DNA from: Myxococcota bacterium
Lineage (GTDB): Bacteria > Myxococcota_A > Polyangia > Nannocystales > Nannocystaceae
Direction of reading: 5' to 3'
DNA: 64,000 nt
Assembly: GCA_039028615.1 (NCBI GenBank)
Contig: JBCCHT010000007.1
Coordinates: forward strand, 192,001-256,000
Shown here: positions 26,026 through 41,370 of the stretch, one piece after another
How positions within the stretch are numbered: the first letter of the stretch is position 1
How the letters are laid out: the number at the start of each line of letters is the position of its first letter
Program-made: the position numbers and the translations under genes
Notes under the pieces: model-generated
Database searches by the model: none
What the model saw: the letters and a program-made list of their open reading frames with translations, nothing else
Told to the model about the DNA's origin: nothing

Positions 26026-27074
26026 TTCGGCTCTTGCTCGTCCTGTTCCGGCGCGTGGTGGTGCAGCGCCGCAACGAGCTGCTCAAGGTCGCCCTGCTCA
26101 CCCTGGTGCTGGTGGCGTTCTCCTCGTCGGGCTTCATGTACTTCGAGCTCGCCGACAAGCCGGACCTCATCTGGGCCGACGCGGTGTGGTGGTCGATCGT
26201 CACGATGACCACCGTCGGCTACGGCGACTTCTTCCCCACCACCCCCGGCGGCCGCTACATCATCGGCTTCCCCACGATGCTCTTCGGCATCAGCATCCTG
26301 GGTTACCTGCTGTCGACCCTGGCGACCTTTCTCATCGAAGAACGCTCGAAGGAACTCAAGGGCATGAGCGAGAGCAAGCGAAGCGACCACATCCTGCTCA
26401 TCCACTATCCGGGGCTCGCGCGGGTGCAGGGCGTCCTCACCGAGCTTCGCACCGACGAGAAGACCGCCGGCTGCCCGGTGGTGATCGTCGATGCCTACCT
26501 CGACGAGCTCCCCAAGGCCCTGGCCGCCCAAGGGGTCGAGTTCGTCAAGGGCGACGCCTCCAAGGAGAGCACGCTGGACCGGGCGCACTTCCACGAGGCT
26601 CGCTTCGCGATCATTCTGTCGCAGGACCCCAACGATCCGGGCAGCGACAACGCCAACCTGGCCGCCGCGCTGACCCTCGAGCACCTGCACCCCGGCATCT
26701 TCACCGTCTCCGAGTGCATCGACCCCGAGCGCATCGAGCTCTTGTACAAGGCCGGCTGCGACGCGGTGGTGTGTCTGACCGCGCTGGCCACCAACCTGGT
26801 GGTGCACGAGCTGCTCGACCCCGGCGTCCAGAAGGTGATCGGCGAGGCCACCAACAACCTCTCCGGGCAGAACATCTACATGGTCGACGTCACGGCCGGC
26901 GACGGCTCGACCTACGTGAGCGCCCGCGATGCCATGGAAAACCGCGGCTGCGCCGCGATGGGGCTCGAGCGTCAGGGCAAGGTGATCCTCAACCCCGACG
27001 CCGAGACCGAGCTGAGCGAAGGCGACCGGCTGATCTGCATCGCCCCCTCGCGGCCCGAGTCGCTGCGCCTTTGA
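26022..27074 (+). CDS. Two-TM potassium channel with RCK (TrkA-N/TrkA-C) domains
   Basis: WWSIVTMTTVGYGD selectivity filter; FVKGDAS..TL, ILNPD..L..GD RCK motifs. Confidence 0.93.
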   Translation: MIRLLLVLFRRVVVQRRNELLKVALLTLVLVAFSSSGFMYFELADKPDLIWADAVWWSIVTMTTVGYGDFFPTTPGGRYIIGFPTMLFGISILGYLLSTLATFLIEERSKELKGMSESKRSDHILLIHYPGLARVQGVLTELRTDEKTAGCPVVIVDAYLDELPKALAAQGVEFVKGDASKESTLDRAHFHEARFAIILSQDPNDPGSDNANLAAALTLEHLHPGIFTVSECIDPERIELLYKAGCDAVVCLTALATNLVVHELLDPGVQKVIGEATNNLSGQNIYMVDVTAGDGSTYVSARDAMENRGCAAMGLERQGKVILNPDAETELSEGDRLICIAPSRPESLRL

Positions 27075-27149
27075 GCCGGGGCTGGCCCCTGGCTGCGAAA
27101 AACTTGCCCGATCCTGCGCTCGAGTACGAAAGCGTGCTCCGAGTGCGGT

Positions 27150-28139
27150 ATGCCCAGTGACATGGGTCCTGCCCCGCCGACCGAGCTGCCCCGCTGGGAC
27201 GAGCTGCGCGCGCTCGTGCTGCGACTGGCGCCGGCCGAGGGCCTCAACCAGACCGCGCTGCCGGGCGTTCGAATCTCCCGCTTCGATCGCCCGCAGAGCT
27301 GGCAGTTCTTCTCGACCCCCGGGCTCGCGATCGGGGTGGTGGTGCAGGGCCGTAAGCAGACCCGCGCGGCCGATCAGGTGCTGTGCTACCACCCCCCGCA
27401 GTTCCTCGTGCTGACGGGCGAGCAGGACTTCCAGTCCGAGATCCTGCAGGCGAGCCCCGAGTCTCCCTATCTGTCGGTGGGGATCTTCATGCCGGCCGAG
27501 GTGGTCGCCGAGACCATGATCGAGCTGGGTAAGGTCGACGATGCGCCGACGGGACGGGCCGAGCCGGGCCCGAACGCCTTCGTCTCCACCGTGGACGAGC
27601 GCCTGCTCGGGACCGTCATCCGCCTGCTCGCCACCGCCGAGGACCCCGCCGAGCGACGAGTCCTGGCGCCGCTGGTCACCCGCGAGCTGGTGTTCCGGGT
27701 ACTGCGCTCCGACGCCGCCGCCTCGCTGCGCCACGCGGTGGGCCGCGACGGCAACGAGCACCGCATTCAGCAGGCCATGGCGTTCATTCGCGAGCACGCC
27801 GAGCAGCCACTCTCGGTCGAGACGCTCGCCCGTCGGGTCGCCATGAGCCCCTCGCATTTTGCCCATCGCTTCGCCGCCATCGCCCGGACCTCTCCGATGC
27901 GCTACCTCAAGCAGGTCCGGCTCCACCGCGCCCGCGCGCTGCTGGTCGACGGCTCGGTACGGGCGAGCGAAGCGGGCGAGCGCGTGGGCTACTCGAGCCC
28001 CTCGCACTTCTCCCGCGACTTCAAAGGCCTGTTCGGCGTCCCGCCCGGCACCTTCGCCAGACGGGCGCGCTCCAACTTCGCAGGATCGGACAAGACTCCA
28101 GCAGCGACCGCCCTGGGGCATGCCTCCGACTCCTCCTAA
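27150..28139 (+). CDS. AraC-family regulator (AraC_N type)
   Basis: VVQGRK, LARRVAMSPSHF...TSPMRYLKQVRL, VGYSSPSHFSRDFK..FG. Confidence 0.92.
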   Translation: MPSDMGPAPPTELPRWDELRALVLRLAPAEGLNQTALPGVRISRFDRPQSWQFFSTPGLAIGVVVQGRKQTRAADQVLCYHPPQFLVLTGEQDFQSEILQASPESPYLSVGIFMPAEVVAETMIELGKVDDAPTGRAEPGPNAFVSTVDERLLGTVIRLLATAEDPAERRVLAPLVTRELVFRVLRSDAAASLRHAVGRDGNEHRIQQAMAFIREHAEQPLSVETLARRVAMSPSHFAHRFAAIARTSPMRYLKQVRLHRARALLVDGSVRASEAGERVGYSSPSHFSRDFKGLFGVPPGTFARRARSNFAGSDKTPAATALGHASDSS

Positions 28140-28148
28140 GTTGAGCGC

Positions 28149-29141
28149 ATGGACAACACCACGCTTGGAACCCGCGGCCCCGCAGTCTTCCCCATCGGCC
28201 TCGGGTGCATGGGGATGTCGGAATTCTACGGCGAGAGCGACGACGCGCGCTCGATCGGGGTCATCCACCGCATGCTCGAGCGCCTGCCTGGGCGGGCCCT
28301 GCTCGACACCGCAGACATGTACGGCAGCGGCCACAACGAGAGCCTGATCGGCCGGGCGATCGCCGATCGGCGCGACCGGGCGGTCATCGCCACCAAGTTC
28401 GCGATCCTGCGCGGCGAAGGGGGCTCGTTCGCGGGCATCTCCGGTCGGCCCGAGTATGTCGCCCCCGCCTGCGACGCGAGCCTCAAGCGCCTGGGCATCG
28501 AGACCATCGATCTGTACTACCAACATCGCGTCGACCCGCAGGTCCCCATCGAAGACACGGTGGGAGCGATGGCAACGCTGGTCGAGGCGGGCAAGGTGCG
28601 GCACCTGGGCCTGTCCGAGGCCGCCCCCGCCACGGTCCGCCGGGCGCATGCGGTGCATCCCATCGCGGCGGTGCAGACGGAGTACTCGCTGTGGAGTCGT
28701 GACCCCGAGGGCGAGCTGCTCGAGACTTGCAAGGAGTTGGGCATCGCGCTGGTCGGCTACTCGCCGCTGGGCCGCGGCTTCCTCAGCGGCACCATCCGCA
28801 GCGTGGACGATCTGGCGGCCGACGACTTCCGTCGGGGGATGCCGCGCTTTTCCGCGGACAACCTCCCTCGCAACCTGGCGCTGGCCGACGCCGTCCAGCA
28901 GCTCGCCCGAGCCAAGGGGTGCACGCCCGCTCAGCTCGCGCTCGCTTGGTTGCTGGCGCGGGACGAGTCGGTGATCGCCATTCCGGGTACGCGCTCGATC
29001 GCCCGGCTCGAAGAGAACCTCGATGCGGTGAAGGTCGAGCTGAGCACCGAAGACCGGGCGCGAATCGATGGCGCCCTGCCCCACGGCGCAGCGGCGGGCG
29101 ACCGCTACTCCGCCGCCCAGATGGCCGCCGTCAACGGATAG
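28149..29141 (+). CDS. Aldo/keto reductase
   Basis: [47 protein letters not shown]. Confidence 0.95.
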
Positions 29142-29144
29142 CGG

Positions 29145-29759
29145 TCACGCGGGGGCGGCCGCGGGCTTCGGGCGCGACCGCTGGGGGCTCGGGGATCCGG
29201 CCACGGGTTTGTTGAAGGTCGGCGAAGACCCCGGGCTCGCGCCCTGCTCGGGGACCTTCGCGGCCGGCTCGGACTCGGCGACCTCGGCCCGCGGGGTCCC
29301 CATGTGGCAACGACCTTCGAGAATTCCTCCTTCGTCGATCACCACCGCCGTGGCCGTGACGTCCCCGTCGACGCTGCCGCTGGTGCTGATCATCAGCTTG
29401 GTCGCCTCGACGTCGCCACGGATCGAACCCTCCACGACGACCTCGGTGCCCTGTACGGCGCCGACGATCGTGGCGCTGCTCCCGAGGGTCAGCTCGTCGA
29501 CTTCGACGTCGCCTTCGATCGATCCGGCCAGCTCGAGTCCACTGGTGCTCGACAACGAGCCGCGGATCGTCATGTCGTGGCCGATGACGTTGACCGGAGC
29601 GCGCGGGGGTTCGGGTGCGGGTGCGGGTACCGGTGTGGGTTCAGGGGCGCGTGGTCGTTCGGAGGCGGCTTCGAGAGCACGCCTGGGCGCGGGCTCCGCG
29701 GAGACTTCGGGTTCGTCGACCTCGACCTGACGACCCAACAAACGCTGAAAGAAGCCCAC
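29145..29759 (-). CDS. Bactofilin (polymer-forming cytoskeletal protein)
   Basis: VIGHDMTIRGSL...VVVEGSIRGDV...VDGDV...IDEGGILEGRCHM; N-terminal MGFFQRLLG membrane-targeting-like peptide; Pro-rich flanks. Confidence 0.9.
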   Translation of the reverse strand: MGFFQRLLGRQVEVDEPEVSAEPAPRRALEAASERPRAPEPTPVPAPAPEPPRAPVNVIGHDMTIRGSLSSTSGLELAGSIEGDVEVDELTLGSSATIVGAVQGTEVVVEGSIRGDVEATKLMISTSGSVDGDVTATAVVIDEGGILEGRCHMGTPRAEVAESEPAAKVPEQGASPGSSPTFNKPVAGSPSPQRSRPKPAAAPA

Positions 29760-29870
29760 ACCTCATCTTCCCATGAAGCCCGTGCGCGATTCGTCGAAAC
29801 ACCGGCCAGATCTGGGCCTTGGAATTGGCGTTACAAACGTCGCTCGGAGTCCACAAAATGGTGTGGGGGA

Positions 29871-31400
29871 GTGGTTTCCGATTCTCAGCTCGAGTGTGCC
29901 ATCCATGGCCGCCTCGTCGGCGACGCCACGGGCGATACCGTGCTGTCGATCGGCCCCGCCGGACATGTCGTCGGCAATGTCAGCGCACCGATCCTGATCG
30001 TCGCGGGCACCATCCGCGGCAATGTGCGGGCGCGGTTGTTGCTCGTTCGAGCGACGGGGGTCATCGAGGGCGACGTCGCCTACGAACGGATCAGCGTGGA
30101 CGATGGCGCATCGATCATCGGACGCGTCGGTAGGCCTTCCCTCGATGACTTGCCCGTCGTGCCGCGACCGGCCGAGCTCACGCCGCCCCTTCGGCACACG
30201 CCTGCGCCGACGGCCCGGGCCCGCCCGCAGCCCGTCGACGTCACCCCCCCGACTGGGCCCACGCCGTCGCCAACGCCGGAGCTCCGTCCGCCGCCATCGC
30301 AGCACCCCGCGTCCGAGTCGGCCGAAGTCTTCGTACTCGAGCCCGGTCGCCGCCGCCCCCCGTCGCGCGCCACGGGCCGCCGTTCCGTCCGCATGGGCAA
30401 GCAGTGGTTCGTGGCCGCGGCCGCTTCGATGCTCACCGTCACCCCGTTGCACGCCGATGGCCCCAAGGCCAAGGCCGCCAAGGCGGACGTCGAGGTCGTC
30501 GAGTCCAGCTCCGCCAGCCCTTCCCTGCTGGCCCTGCCGAGCATTCCGTTCCTGCGCCCGCCGACCGACGACTCCGAGGTGGTCGAGGCCAGCCCCGCCA
30601 TGGACGTGGCGTGGACCCTCGACAAGGCCGCCAACCTCCGCATGATGTCGTTCCGCTGGGGGCTGCCCGAGTCCGAGCTCGCCCAGCTCAACCCTCAGCT
30701 CGAGCGTCGCACGATGTACCCGGCGGGCACCGAGGTCTGGGTGTTCCGCAGCGACCCCGAGGCCATCACGCGCTCGCTCGGCTATCCGAACCGGGGCTCG
30801 CTGGTGCATGGCATTCCCATGCCGCAGAGCGAGCACTGGACGATGCGAGGCGGCCGACGACGGGTGTACGGCACCGCCACCACCATCGCGACGCTCTCCA
30901 ACGCGTTCGCGGCGTATGCCGCTCAGTTCCCCGATGCGGACCCGATCCGCCTCGGAGACATCTCCGCCCGACGCGGCAAGCACATCAGCCCCCACCAGTC
31001 ACACCAAAGCGGCCGCGACGTGGATATCGCCTACGTGCGGCTGGCCCCGCCGACCGGCAAGCGGCGCGGCATGTGGCAGACCGCGGTCGAGAACCTCGAT
31101 GCCACCCGCACCTGGTTTTTGGTGCGCACGCTGATCGACTCCGGCGTCGTACAGTCGATCTTCGTCAACCAAGAGGTCCAACGCCCGATCCGCGAGGCCG
31201 CGCTGGCCGATCTGCCGGCCGCGGAAGTCGACGAGTACATGGAGTTCCTCTCCCACGAGGATGGCCACAAGGGCCACATGCACGTCCGTTTCCTCTGCGA
31301 GCACGGCAACCTGCAATGCCGCCCGCACTCCCTCCCCACCCCCACCACGAGCCGCGCCGCCCAGTCTCCCGAAGCGGGCCTGGCCGACGACGGTGACTGA
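29871..31400 (+). CDS. Bactofilin - Pro linker - TM/signal - LysM-like - MepA (M74) murein endopeptidase fusion
   Basis: Bactofilin repeats (IGPAGHVVGNV...IEGDVAYERISVDDGASIIG); MepA motifs SLGYPNRGSL, YGT, GDIS..RG, HQSHQSGRDVDI, HKGHMHVRF; start GTG 29871 is more likely than 29304. Confidence 0.8.
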   Translation: MVSDSQLECAIHGRLVGDATGDTVLSIGPAGHVVGNVSAPILIVAGTIRGNVRARLLLVRATGVIEGDVAYERISVDDGASIIGRVGRPSLDDLPVVPRPAELTPPLRHTPAPTARARPQPVDVTPPTGPTPSPTPELRPPPSQHPASESAEVFVLEPGRRRPPSRATGRRSVRMGKQWFVAAAASMLTVTPLHADGPKAKAAKADVEVVESSSASPSLLALPSIPFLRPPTDDSEVVEASPAMDVAWTLDKAANLRMMSFRWGLPESELAQLNPQLERRTMYPAGTEVWVFRSDPEAITRSLGYPNRGSLVHGIPMPQSEHWTMRGGRRRVYGTATTIATLSNAFAAYAAQFPDADPIRLGDISARRGKHISPHQSHQSGRDVDIAYVRLAPPTGKRRGMWQTAVENLDATRTWFLVRTLIDSGVVQSIFVNQEVQRPIREAALADLPAAEVDEYMEFLSHEDGHKGHMHVRFLCEHGNLQCRPHSLPTPTTSRAAQSPEAGLADDGD

Positions 31401-31430
31401 ACCAACCCCCGTAGCCTTGGAGCGAAAGCC

Positions 31431-31850
31431 ATGCCCGAGTCCAGCAACTTCATCACCGAAGACACGACCGTCAACGGCGACATCACCACCGCGTCCTCCC
31501 TGACCATCGCCGGCACCGTCAACGGCGACATCGAGGCGGAGCAAGACGTCACCATCCTCAGCACGGCCACCGTGACCGGCAACGTGTCGGGCCCCGGGAT
31601 TCAGGTGCAGGGCAAGGTCAAGGGCAAGGTCGCCGCCAGCGGCCGCCTGGTCATCGGAGCGACGGGCGGCGTGTGGGGCGACATCTCCGTGCGGGCGCTC
31701 CTCATCGAAGAAGGCGGCGTCCTCGAGGGTCAGTGCAGCATGCGGAGTGCGGAAGCCGAGGCCCCCGCGCCGAGTCCCGAGGTCCCGCGCCCGAACCTTC
31801 GGCCACCGCTCAAGCCCCCGGGTGGTGGCGACGCGCGGCCTTCGGCGTAG
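31431..31850 (+). CDS. Bactofilin
   Basis: ITEDTTVNGDI...VQGKVKGKV...VWGDI...IEEGGVLEGQCSM; GGAG SD upstream. Confidence 0.92.
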   Translation: MPESSNFITEDTTVNGDITTASSLTIAGTVNGDIEAEQDVTILSTATVTGNVSGPGIQVQGKVKGKVAASGRLVIGATGGVWGDISVRALLIEEGGVLEGQCSMRSAEAEAPAPSPEVPRPNLRPPLKPPGGGDARPSA

Positions 31851-31856
31851 ACGGGC

Positions 31857-32414
31857 TCAGGATCGCGAGGCATCGCGCGGCGGCGCGGCACAGGGCTGCC
31901 CCGTCGCCCACGTGTATACGACGCTGGTCACCGCGCCTCCGTGGAAGTCCTCGGGCTCGCGTTCGGCGAGTACGCCTCCGCGGGCTTCGTAGAACGAGCA
32001 GCAGCGAAGCTCCGCAAGCGTGGCGACGTACATCGAACGCAGCTCGTCGCCCCTGAGTGCATCGCAGGCCTCCGTCCATAGGCGCGCACCGACGCCCGCG
32101 CCGCGATGCTCGGGCAACACGTGGATGACGTAGACCTCGAGCTCGGTGCCGAGCTCCTTCCTTCGCGGGCGGCCCACGGTGATGAAGCCGATGATCTCCC
32201 CCGCGCGCTCGGCCACGAGATCGACCCGCTGCGGGTTGCCCTGCACCGCCGTCAGCCACTCGCGCCAATCCGCCGTTCGCTTGGCCACATCGGGCGCGTC
32301 CCAGACCGCGGCGAGCGGTGCATAGGCGTCGTCCGAAGACTCGACGTGCACGCGAGCGATCCCGCCGACATCGGCCAGGGTGGCAGGCCGAACGCGAAAC
32401 ACTTGATCGCCCAT
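31857..32414 (-). CDS. GNAT-family N-acetyltransferase
   Basis: RPATLAD, IHVLPEHRGAGVGARL (motif A), FYEARGG. Confidence 0.88.
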   Translation of the reverse strand: MGDQVFRVRPATLADVGGIARVHVESSDDAYAPLAAVWDAPDVAKRTADWREWLTAVQGNPQRVDLVAERAGEIIGFITVGRPRRKELGTELEVYVIHVLPEHRGAGVGARLWTEACDALRGDELRSMYVATLAELRCCSFYEARGGVLAEREPEDFHGGAVTSVVYTWATGQPCAAPPRDASRS

Positions 32415-32458
32415 GCACCGACTGTAGCCCGCCGCGTCTCATCGGGCGCCCGATAGAC

Positions 32459-32487
32459 GAAAACCGTCGCGGGGGGCGACGGTCTTC
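32459..32487 (-). terminator. Intrinsic terminator downstream of the ECF sigma gene
   Basis: Minus strand gaagaccgtcgc-ccccc-gcgacggttttc. Confidence 0.6.
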
Positions 32488-32514
32488 GCTGGTCGGTCGG
32501 TGTGCGTTGAAAAC

Positions 32515-33183
32515 TCAGGCGGGGCTCGATGCGACGCCCTGCTCGGACGCGGGCACCAAGATGTTGGCCAGGGCCTTGTAGGCCCGGTGGGCGCGGACCC
32601 GCAGGGCGCCGGGGCGCACGCCGAGGCGCTCGCCGATGTCGGCCATGCTCATGCCGCGAAGCTTGTGGAGCTTGACCACCTCGCGCTGTCCCGGAGGAAG
32701 CTGCTCGATGGCATCGCGGACGCGCTGGTTGAGCTCGTCGCCGTTCTCCCGCGACATCTGCAGCTCCTCGGCGTTCGGCACCGCCTCGGGCACCCCCATG
32801 CCGGAGATATCGCCCTTGGCGATCAAGGTCTCGTGCCGGCGATCGCGACGGTAGTCGTGGCGAAGGTGGTCGAGCGCGACGTTGCGGGCGATGGCGAGGT
32901 ACCAGCCCTCGACGGCCCGGTCGGCGCGCTGGGGAAGCGAGGCGAAGCGATCGCGCGCGGCATGTGCGCGAAGGAAGGTCAGCTGGACCAAGTCGTCGAC
33001 CACGGCCGCGTCCCGCACCAGCCGGCTCAGCCGCGCCCGAAGGCGCGGTTGAAGCGCCGCATGGAGCTTCGTGAACGCGTACTCGTCACCATCGACATAG
33101 GCCTCCATCCAGCGATGCAGCTGGCCCCCGGGGTTCTTGGGGGAGTTGGAGGAAGCAGACAGATTGGCGTGATGCTCGGTCAT
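32515..33183 (-). CDS. ECF sigma-70 factor with no adjacent anti-sigma
   Basis: DDLVQLTFLRAH, WYLAIARNVALDHLR, LPPGQREV...VRAHRAYKAL. Confidence 0.92.
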   Translation of the reverse strand: MTEHHANLSASSNSPKNPGGQLHRWMEAYVDGDEYAFTKLHAALQPRLRARLSRLVRDAAVVDDLVQLTFLRAHAARDRFASLPQRADRAVEGWYLAIARNVALDHLRHDYRRDRRHETLIAKGDISGMGVPEAVPNAEELQMSRENGDELNQRVRDAIEQLPPGQREVVKLHKLRGMSMADIGERLGVRPGALRVRAHRAYKALANILVPASEQGVASSPA

Positions 33184-38944: not shown

Positions 38945-41272
38945 TCAGCGAGCGAAGGTGATCGGCAGCTGCACCAAAACGCCGTAATCGTTGTCATCGT
39001 CGCTACTCGCGCGAGGCGTGATGCCGACCGGAGTCACCAACACCCGGCACAGGACCTTGGCCTGATGGCCCATGGCCAGCTGCTCCCGCAGGCGCGCCGC
39101 CGTCTTCGAGGGGATGTACACCGAGTTCTCCGGGCCGTAGTGCCGCGTCACCCGGTCGGTGCCCACCGCTCGCAGGTCCCAGCGCTGGCCCGCGTCGTCC
39201 TCGAGCACCCAGCGATAGTGCCGAGTGAAGGCCGAGCCCGGGTTGAAGGCGTCGCAGGTGAAGCCCGCGGCCGAGTCGGGCGCCAGCGAGACCGCCCCCG
39301 GCTGCGACTGCACGATGCGGGAGCCGGCGCGCATCTGCTCCATCACCAAGCGCGGCACTCGGCGCATCGCGTCGCTGCCCTTGTCGATGGCCTTCTCGAA
39401 CAGCACCGCGGCCTGAACCCGGCTGTCGGGAGAGCCCGACTTCTCGCGGAACTTGTCGGCGGCCGCCGGCACCGAGCCGGGCAGGTCGCCCTCGAGGTGC
39501 TCCTTCCACAGCGCCTCGCGCATCTTCTTGCCGAAGGCCTTGTCGTACACGGCCACGCTGAGCTCGGTGTCGGGGGCACTGCCGCGCCCGGTCGTGAACA
39601 CCTTGCTCAGGTCGGTGACGCCGAGCAGCGAGATGCCGCCCGCGTTGGCCGAGCCGATGAGCGACCAGCGATCGTCGACGATGAGGCACTTGGAGTGGAT
39701 GTAGATCTGCGCCGAGTCCTTGCCGAACTCCTCGATGTCCGCGTCGGACAGCGCGACGTTGTCCTGCCGCGACGCAGGCAGCGGCGCCACGGCGCAGTAC
39801 ATGCCGAACTGATCTGCGCTCTTGGTCTGCGCGATGACCCGGTCCACGTGCGGGCGCAGGTCGATGTCCTGGTCGGTGCCGTAGCCCGCCGCATCGAGCG
39901 GACGCCGCGGCAGCATGATCACGATGCGGAAGTCGGGGTTGTCGGCGTTCCGCTTCATCGACTCGACCAGCTCGGCCCAGATGTGCTCGTCGCTGATCCA
40001 CTGGTTTTCGAGGTAGATGTACTCGCGCGCGGCCCGAATCGCGATGAGGTACGCGTCCTTGCAGGAGCGCTCCCAGGTCTCGTCGGTGAGGTTCCATTCG
40101 GGCTTCTGCTCGTCCCGGGTGTAGCGCCCGGCCGGCATCGAGCGCACGACCTGGATCTTGGTCCCCGACAGGTTCGGCACGGAGTCGATGCCACACTTGT
40201 CGACCAGCTCGGAGGTTCCCTCTTCGTCGTCGTCGCGAACGTGGATGTCGTCGGTGTTGCGCATCCGGTCTTGGTAGACCTGCGGATCGATGGTGATGCG
40301 CGAAAATTTGTGACGGTCGTCGCCGTCGTCGGCCACCACGTTGAAGTTGAGCTCCTTGAACTCGCGGCGCACCAGCTGCTTGCCCTTGCGAACGTAGCGG
40401 CTGGTGACCTTCTCGACCCGCGACATGTCCTTGTACAGGACCCCGTGGTTCCAGCGAGCGTGGAAGTTGTCGAGCACGAACTGCACCGCGGGCCCTTCGA
40501 CCTTGCACTGCACGTCGTGCCAGAAGTGCTCGGGCAGCGAGTAGCGGCGGTCGTCTTGCGGGCCGTAGGGCTCGTAGACCTCGTAGGTCTCGACGTCGTC
40601 GTAGGTGAACCAGCGGCTGACGATCCGCTCGTTCTCCATCTTGCCTGGCGCCGCGGCGGGAATCTCGTGGTCGATGTTGTCCCAGCGGTCGCCGTCGACG
40701 AGGGTGAGGTCGATGCCGCCCACGAACGCGATCTTCTTGTCGATGATCACCGTCTTTTGGTGATGCGTGGACATGAACACGCCCTGGTGGACATCGGTTC
40801 GGCACATCACGTTGGGATAGTCGGCCAGCCCCGTGAACAGGTCGGAAGTCTCGGGCAAGTACCAGTCGAGGTGCCCCGCCTTCTTGATCGCCCCGCGAAT
40901 GGGATTGACCGTCGTCCACTCGTTCTTCCAGAACTGATTGACGAGCAGGTAGACCTTCACTCCGCGCTGGGCCAGCCCGCGCAGTGTATTGAGCAGGTTG
41001 TCGGGGTGATCGAGGTCGGCGTTCGCACTGCCCCCGCCCCGGATCAGCCGCCACGTGGGCTGGAAGTGCAGCCCCGTCAGCATGACCTCCTCGGTGGCGG
41101 TCGCGAGCGCAGCGTGCAGGGACTTGCCGTAGTCGTCGCCGTCGACCAGCAGCTCGATCGTGTTGTCCCCGGTGACCGGCAGGTAGTCGACGAACCACTG
41201 TCGCGGAGGCTGGCGCAGCACGTTGGTCGACCGCCGTGCGACGGGGTGATTGGTCTTGGTCTCGTCTACCAT
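38945..41272 (-). CDS. Phospholipase D with two HKD motifs (eukaryote-like/Tle5-like)
   Basis: THHQKTVIIDKKIAFVGGIDL..RWD, WHD, YIYLENQW, IYIHSKCLIVDDRWSLIGSAN; start ATG 41272 (alternative 41335). Confidence 0.9.
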   Translation of the reverse strand: MVDETKTNHPVARRSTNVLRQPPRQWFVDYLPVTGDNTIELLVDGDDYGKSLHAALATATEEVMLTGLHFQPTWRLIRGGGSANADLDHPDNLLNTLRGLAQRGVKVYLLVNQFWKNEWTTVNPIRGAIKKAGHLDWYLPETSDLFTGLADYPNVMCRTDVHQGVFMSTHHQKTVIIDKKIAFVGGIDLTLVDGDRWDNIDHEIPAAAPGKMENERIVSRWFTYDDVETYEVYEPYGPQDDRRYSLPEHFWHDVQCKVEGPAVQFVLDNFHARWNHGVLYKDMSRVEKVTSRYVRKGKQLVRREFKELNFNVVADDGDDRHKFSRITIDPQVYQDRMRNTDDIHVRDDDEEGTSELVDKCGIDSVPNLSGTKIQVVRSMPAGRYTRDEQKPEWNLTDETWERSCKDAYLIAIRAAREYIYLENQWISDEHIWAELVESMKRNADNPDFRIVIMLPRRPLDAAGYGTDQDIDLRPHVDRVIAQTKSADQFGMYCAVAPLPASRQDNVALSDADIEEFGKDSAQIYIHSKCLIVDDRWSLIGSANAGGISLLGVTDLSKVFTTGRGSAPDTELSVAVYDKAFGKKMREALWKEHLEGDLPGSVPAAADKFREKSGSPDSRVQAAVLFEKAIDKGSDAMRRVPRLVMEQMRAGSRIVQSQPGAVSLAPDSAAGFTCDAFNPGSAFTRHYRWVLEDDAGQRWDLRAVGTDRVTRHYGPENSVYIPSKTAARLREQLAMGHQAKVLCRVLVTPVGITPRASSDDDNDYGVLVQLPITFAR

Positions 41273-41370
41273 CGGCTCTGTCCGGCCCCGCAAAGGCCGT
41301 CGCTCATCGTATCGCTCCTCGACGCGCCTGACCACGGGCCAACTCGCGCCCTGCTAGCCTTGGCCTCGGC

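Follow-up and report, generated by a model that had tools for sequence, protein, structure and literature searches.

The stretch of DNA analysed here, referred to as the window, comprises 64,000 nucleotides of a Nannocystaceae genome (phylum Myxococcota; 12.3 Mb, 68% GC; contig JBCCHT010000007.1, positions 192,001 to 256,000), and harbours a gene whose 509-residue product (P0001/P0002) joins a bactofilin domain, in a single polypeptide, to a LysM-like module and a zinc endopeptidase domain of the M74/MepA family with intact catalytic motifs. This fusion architecture is real and rare, being represented by five proteins, and is apparently undescribed, while it is already an established principle that bactofilins guide hydrolases. 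The favoured reading, to which a probability of about 0.5 is assigned, is that the protein is an endopeptidase spanning the membrane once, with a bactofilin domain that would dock it on filaments of accessory bactofilins and so localise the cleavage of peptidoglycan cross-links.

Pfam searches confirmed three genes at the positions given by the original prediction, i.e., the fusion gene and, on either side of it, a stand-alone bactofilin gene, here designated BacA-prime and BacB-prime. Within the 509-residue open reading frame (ORF), Bactofilin (PF04519) was assigned to residues 8-86 (E 3.7e-15) and Peptidase_M74 to residues 303-489 (E 1.4e-17), both above their cut-offs and with no intervening stop. 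The exact 509-residue product is present among the NCBI and Logan gene calls, which are predictions and not a measure of expression, and the same gene calls hold no record of a 335-residue product starting at ATG 30393. No RNA data set was listed as containing the gene. A Logan contig that spans positions 28000-32668 differs by one letter and is gap-free, which excludes an assembler frame error, although this contig possibly derives from the source sample and so does not represent independent biology. The uninterrupted frame thus stands as predicted, and an assembly artefact is unsupported given a Logan contig without indels. A 698-residue ORF starting at 29304 was set aside, as it overlaps the divergent gene and contributes no extra domain.

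The same fusion was found in four further proteins, i.e., P0014 and P0015 (also read at loci L021 and L022), P0009 (Logan) and P0016 (ENA), with 40-45% identity in the LysM-M74 part, and no relatives with a stop or frameshift between the bactofilin and M74 parts were found. A profile of four fusions matches end to end in three of the 73 family genomes, including that of the window, while four of the best 150 among 1.84 billion representatives cover the bactofilin part. Beyond the family, no fusion was detected at E<=1e-45 (a stricter first look) in 329 genomes of the other families of the class, nor among the 43 matches listed for 401 genomes of the phylum. Likewise, no bactofilin was present at 80 metagenome loci (the best 80 of 460 matches listed) or at 19 genome-contig loci, and a bactofilin hidden Markov model (HMM) did not find the domain in the other M74 proteins collected by that stage. 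A search with residues 1-100 retrieved the window protein only, and the ESM Atlas returned M74/LysM clusters only, with scores <0.8.

A single origin of the fusion fits, without being proven by, the trees of both domains, which give it moderate support. The LysM-M74 tree of 147 rows (matches scoring at least 110 with the domain covered and duplicates merged) places the five fusions in one group, with a Shimodaira-Hasegawa-like approximate likelihood ratio test (SH-aLRT) value of 86, together with the unfused-looking P0006 and P0017. The five fused domains also group in the bactofilin tree (98/89; SH-aLRT 87 after removal of two outliers); the weak bactofilin-HMM matches L104 and L105 were judged false positives and were left out of the second bactofilin tree.

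Sequence, fold and motifs all assign the catalytic half of the fusion to M74. It matches MepA in structure (Foldseek against 1u10, E 6.7e-14, template modelling score 0.60), and the zinc motifs are intact as predicted: H375, H378, D383, D385, H466, H469 and H471 are invariant in all 79 aligned sequences, and H378, D385, H469 and H471 align with H94, D101, H190 and H192 of the 1tzp chain (H-x6-D and H-x-H). In full MepA numbering, His113, Asp120 and His211 are presumably the zinc ligands, a role for which no paper was found. C476 and C483, which match the MepA Cys pair, are kept in at least 90% of the aligned sequences. By analogy with MepA, the window enzyme is inferred to cut peptidoglycan cross-links.

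Adjacent to the catalytic domain, the predicted LysM-like stretch was recovered as a fold but not as a Pfam profile. A domain model of the LysM-M74 part, based on 79 sequences and with a predicted local distance difference test (pLDDT) value of 95, contains the LysM beta-alpha-alpha-beta arrangement (E7-10, H17-24, H28-34 and E49-53, pLDDT 83-98), and residues 245-292 give weak Foldseek matches to the LysM proteins 3zqd, 5jce and 8rhf (E 0.02-0.07). The window protein has no Pfam match to LysM (PF01476) at E<=1, while 29 of the 79 aligned relatives match it at E<=0.05 somewhere in their sequence.

The N-terminal domain is a bactofilin by profile (56.4 bits against the PF04519 cut-off of 27.9), yet its alignment and model mark it as degenerate. 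Whereas the neighbouring bactofilins cover profile positions 2-97, the fused domain covers 18-97, and its model has five windings rather than the six of the right-handed bactofilin beta-helix, the first being absent; neither a frameshift in three frames nor an upstream in-frame start regains this winding. The AlphaFold2 model gives the domain a pLDDT of 72-88 (as a whole, the full-protein model, from four sequences, was poor with a pLDDT of 55, and a domain model replaced it), and Foldseek comparison to 6ria/6rib returned a probability of 1.00 but E-values of 0.03-0.13. Bactofilins polymerise independently of nucleotides via N-N and C-C interfaces, and alignments place I82 at the F105 position of TtBac, located at the C-C interface, so that a hydrophobic residue is kept there. 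All six windings are present in P0014 and P0009, while the first is eroded in P0016 and the last is missing from P0015; a terminal winding is thus lost or eroded in three of the five fusions. Pairwise identity among the fusions is 28-52% for the bactofilin domain against 49-72% for the M74 cores, and the fused domains of genomes G009 and G024 are 42% identical as compared to 52-77% for the stand-alone bactofilins of these genomes. The original prediction had the hydrolase carrying its own polymerising subunit; a bactofilin domain is indeed present, but its degeneration and the loss of terminal windings are more in keeping with a tag for docking or capping than with an ordinary polymer subunit.

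The open linker between the domains, with a GC content at third codon positions of 0.87-0.93, is in itself weak evidence for one polypeptide, because 23-56% of 5000 shuffles of its DNA are likewise free of stops. The linkers of the five fusions differ in length and all are in frame, which, in proteins so divergent, indicates selection for a single polypeptide.

All five fusions carry a hydrophobic segment of 12-15 residues between their two halves, with three to five Lys/Arg residues in the preceding 15, and these segments resemble the N-terminal signal peptides of unfused relatives. In the window protein the segment spans some 15 residues (W179-L193), with Kyte-Doolittle values of 1.55 over 15 residues and 0.94 over 19, whereas the anchors of tail-anchored relatives (see below) are stronger, at 2.15-2.89 over 19 residues in 19 of 20 cases. 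The segment had been taken for a transmembrane helix; the hydrophobic stretch exists, but it is short and weak and has the anatomy of a signal peptide more than that of an anchor, and probably represents an ancestral signal peptide turned internal. RR pairs precede it in several fusions, without what we take to be the Tat consensus.

The two flanking bactofilins offer candidate filament partners. BacA-prime begins with MGFFQRLLGR, which resembles the bactofilin membrane-targeting motif (consensus MFSKKKK in the available part of PMC12448750), and its relatives begin with MFGFKK, MFEFLRRK or MFSKRRK. BacB-prime starts 30 bp after the fusion gene, with GGAG 8 nt upstream, and is taken to lack a membrane-targeting peptide because only five to six residues precede its domain. 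Close orthologues of BacB-prime (57-65% identity) occur in 21 other family genomes, one of them as a partial match. A complex model of the fused domain (residues 1-92) with BacB-prime scored 0.70 against 0.01 for the best of three controls, a mark that 116 of 157 solved complexes attain, as do two of 215 mismatched pairs; this calibration is roughly valid for the alignments used here, which were our own. At least 98% of contacts are common to the runs, the partner pLDDT is at least 84, and in the modelled interface the truncated N-terminal end of the fused domain (7-23) abuts the last winding of BacB-prime (89-107) in a parallel, head-to-tail arrangement. Such an interface could be either a capping junction or a mere continuation of the beta-solenoid by the model. 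Of the predicted co-assembly with the neighbouring bactofilins, contact with BacB-prime is hence supported by the model, subject to the likeness to TtBac considered below.

On this basis, the fusion gene product would be a single-pass inner-membrane protein with its N-terminus inside and its C-terminus outside, a bitopic topology for which the segment is short and bears its positive charge on the N side. The LysM-like and M74 domains would bind and cut cross-links in the periplasm, while the cytoplasmic, degenerate bactofilin domain may act as an address tag that docks, probably at filament ends, on filaments with a BacB-prime core and BacA-prime as membrane-binding subunit. Wall cleavage would thereby be limited to the bactofilin patch, resulting in local wall remodelling.

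Several observations weigh against this reading. The window segment is short and has a possible signal-peptidase site at its end, while that of P0009 has only ~7 residues of pure hydrophobics. ATG 30393 falls exactly at the start of the segment and was the start preferred by the codon model. Synonymous codon bias is -0.02 in the bactofilin part and 0.01 in the linker versus 0.21-0.35 in the remainder (LysM-M74), and the linker value ranks among the lowest 2% of real gene pieces and is reached by 27% of shuffles. Members of the fusion clade, i.e., P0006 and P0017/P0176, are annotated without a bactofilin part; in addition, the fused domains evolve fast and form long branches, and long-branch attraction is possible. 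The 17-kb stretches at the fusion in the other two fusion genomes contain no second bactofilin. Finally, the three controls of the complex model included no non-cognate bactofilin, and its score may reflect likeness to solved TtBac filaments.

It is conceivable, though unlikely, that the fusion is a polyprotein which docks on bactofilin at full length and is cut by signal peptidase I after the internal segment (e.g., LHA/DG), yielding a soluble periplasmic LysM-M74 enzyme near the filament and leaving a C-terminally anchored bactofilin stub. The Arg-rich n-region, the h-region of 12-15 residues and the Pro/Ala c-region, which resemble the N-termini of the unfused P0006-P0010, are as such a scheme would have them, but the five fusions share no common cleavage motif, and the related tail subfamily possesses a genuine membrane anchor.

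An upstream bactofilin gene may alternatively have lost its stop beside an ordinary secreted LysM-M74 gene that is translated from the internal ATG 30393, the bactofilin part being a decaying read-through remnant. The position of this ATG at the start of a signal-like segment, the weak codon bias of the N-terminal part, the terminal windings missing or eroded in three of the five fusions and the unfused-looking members of the clade are all in line with such decay. The codon-bias test is blunt, given that the N-terminal tail of the divergent bactofilin is likewise low (-0.28). Furthermore, ATG 30393 has no Shine-Dalgarno match while the upstream GTG start has GGTG at 7 nt, although three of 20 neighbouring starts equally lack such a match, and the fusions of G024 and G009 have no ATG before the segment and only GTG codons at its start. 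Retention of the beta-helix pattern and of the frame, while the M74 cores are 49-72% identical, is hard to explain without selection. A remnant of this kind is considered improbable.

That the segment is unused, and that the bactofilin domain keeps the enzyme in cytoplasmic polymers until release by lysis or contact (autolysis or prey lysis), is very unlikely: the weak hydrophobicity of the segment in the window protein and P0009, and a genome whose 17 M74 genes make a specialised copy affordable, would suit such a store, but every one of the five fusions retains the hydrophobic segment together with a basic n-region, and the MepA Cys pair, which would suit an oxidising compartment, is conserved.

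Further context for the docking reading is provided by a subfamily of unfused LysM-like-M74 proteins whose branch in the M74 tree is next to that of the fusions (joint SH-aLRT 98). Its members (L072 at G014:C12:2624894-2626289, L054, L069-L071, L113-L127 and L305) have a clear transmembrane segment and a short cytoplasmic tail, with a conserved SGWxW motif at 20 of the 21 loci; the remaining locus is truncated where its contig ends. This tail form occurs in 20 of the 73 family genomes, none of which has the fusion. Accessory bactofilins are present in 22 of the 23 genomes with either form, and 22 of the 26 genomes with accessory bactofilins have one of the two, counts that come from a handful of related genera and lack independence. 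In G014 the tail-form gene is divergent to a BacA-prime-like gene, as is the fusion gene in the window, while no bactofilin was found in the stretches fetched for the other 20 loci (up to ~4 kb on each side). By analogy with LmdC, the SGWxW tail might bind bactofilin. Two near-identical tail-anchored copies in one genome, L114 and L116 (G044:C5 and C17), are either a duplication or an assembly duplicate, and L305 (G084:C52) seems frameshifted between its LysM and catalytic parts, perhaps through a sequencing error.

A broader proposal, put forward tentatively and with low confidence, is that Nannocystaceae possess an undescribed bactofilin-M74 system for wall remodelling, served by two adaptors that are interchangeable. 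In most lineages the adaptor would be the SGWxW tail on a membrane-anchored LysM-M74 protein, and in a few it would be a truncated bactofilin domain capping the accessory filament in a parallel head-to-tail junction, so that a filament without polarity of its own would acquire a defined end bearing the enzyme.

The window genome (G000) encodes 17 M74 proteins, and the role of the fusion is therefore probably accessory; among 14 control genomes only that of E. coli was matched, and P0001 as query retrieved 6-21 matches in family genomes, a figure that includes bactofilin matches. One of the window genome's M74 genes, L304 (G000:C10:133949-135802, minus strand), combines FHA, a hydrophobic segment, LysM and M74 within a single reading frame. 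It is a further fusion of a cytoplasmic domain to a wall hydrolase, possibly under phosphorylation control, and provides a precedent for cytoplasmic domains on such enzymes. Elsewhere in the M74 family, P0106 and P0126 exhibit an L,D-transpeptidase (YkuD) fused to M74.

The coordinates of the locus are collected in the table below. The lineage-specific block is flanked by genes for a K+ channel and an ECF sigma factor, and the four congeners checked all have a Ser/Thr kinase gene in that slot and none of the six block genes, which identifies the three-gene cluster as a lineage-specific insert. A three-gene locus conserved in relatives was thus not borne out, the cluster being seen in the window genome only. 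Accessory bactofilins show a patchy distribution: they occur in 26 of the 73 family genomes, including all three fusion genomes, and in none of the five other genomes of the genus, which hold only four core bactofilins over the cut-off. Four core bactofilins are encoded elsewhere in the window genome, one singly and three as a triplet, which by gene order would correspond to BacM and BacNOP; the three bactofilin domains of the window fall outside this core group in the tree. One accessory bactofilin, L109 (G014:C2:1545911-1546546), gives two overlapping profile matches suggestive of extra windings. No sigma-70-like promoter was found in the divergent intergenic region, and the promoter/terminator scan was uninformative. 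Elsewhere in the window, a long ORF at 38945-41335 (minus strand) contains two HKD-like motifs (HHQKTVIID and HSKCLIVD) and probably encodes a phospholipase D-family protein.

Table. Features of the bactofilin-M74 locus, in window coordinates
Feature	Position	Strand	Remarks
BacA-prime, stand-alone accessory bactofilin, 204 residues	29145..29759	minus	Pfam Bactofilin, E 2e-20, 73.2 bits
Bactofilin domain of BacA-prime, residues 58-151	29307-29588	minus	
Divergent intergenic region, 111 bp	29760..29870		GGTG 7 nt upstream of the GTG start of the fusion
Bactofilin-linker-hydrophobic segment-LysM-like-M74 fusion (P0001/P0002), 509 residues	29871..31400	plus	
Fused bactofilin domain, five windings	29892..30128	plus	Pfam profile positions 18-97
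Pro-rich linker, predicted disordered, Arg-rich at its end	30132..30392	plus	pLDDT <50 over most of its length
Signal-peptide-like segment M175-A195, probably internalised; h-region W179-L193, ends P-L-H-A	30393..30455	plus	
LysM-like beta-alpha-alpha-beta module, residues 245-292	30603..30746	plus	AlphaFold2 model, pLDDT 95
M74/MepA zinc endopeptidase domain	30777..31337	plus	Pfam, alignment, Foldseek
BacB-prime, stand-alone accessory bactofilin, 139 residues	31431..31850	plus	Pfam Bactofilin, E 7e-24, 84.4 bits
Lineage-specific block: AraC, aldo-keto reductase, three genes (two bactofilins and the fusion), GNAT	27071..32547		

As far as the literature searched is concerned, the original prediction was correct in that no description of a bactofilin-M74 architecture was found, in a search weighted towards open-access papers, and InterPro may list it. 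A review table of M74 partner domains names LysM, PGB1, amidase and SLT, with bactofilin not among them in the part available (PMC6403190). How bactofilins select and place their clients is described as poorly understood (PMC12448750, in part). A natural fusion constitutes gene-fusion evidence for bactofilins working with a second hydrolase family, M74 besides M23, and points to enzyme recruitment via co-assembly through a degenerate bactofilin domain, while five-winding domains could be natural filament caps.

MepA is a soluble periplasmic enzyme. The fusion shares with E. coli MepA (1tzp, 1u10) its fold, the H-x6-D and H-x-H zinc motifs and the Cys pair, but differs from it in that MepA is a single-domain enzyme. 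Similar to TtBac (6ria, 6rib) and BacA of C. crescentus (2n3d), the fused domain is a beta-helix with a hydrophobic residue at the F105 equivalent, and BacA-prime resembles canonical bactofilins in its membrane-targeting-like N-terminus (PMC12448750, in part). In contrast to canonical bactofilins, the fused domain has five windings where the TtBac beta-helix has six (bioRxiv 10.1101/617639, as far as available), and it is followed by a C-terminal membrane segment and an enzyme. Membrane-anchored bactofilins, which represent ~3.2% of entries and include CcmA of Proteus, have N-terminal helices and, in the portions of these sources available, no reported catalytic domain (bioRxiv 10.1101/617639, PMC12448750). 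The three window domains belong, like BacM/BacNOP of Myxococcus xanthus, to myxobacterial bactofilins, yet they differ from these, to the extent covered by the text available (PMC12288465), in lying outside the core group and in their patchy distribution.

The closest comparison is with the BacA-LmdC module of Hyphomonas neptunium and Rhodospirillum rubrum (PMC10945521, available in part), where LmdC binds BacA via its cytoplasmic tail and where a survey of 226 species covered adjacent M23 genes only. In both systems the gene of a zinc endopeptidase acting on peptidoglycan neighbours one or more bactofilin genes. LmdC has a membrane segment preceded by a cytoplasmic N-terminal part through which it is recruited, and the same organisation and recruitment are proposed here for the fusion. 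The defining M23 feature of the module is absent, no Pfam match to M23 being found in the window fusion. There is about an even chance, by analogy, that the fusion is a covalent counterpart of BacA-LmdC in which M74 replaces M23. In such a counterpart an M74 enzyme with a LysM-like module would stand in place of an M23 enzyme with coiled coils, and a bactofilin domain in place of the beta-hairpin tail of LmdC.

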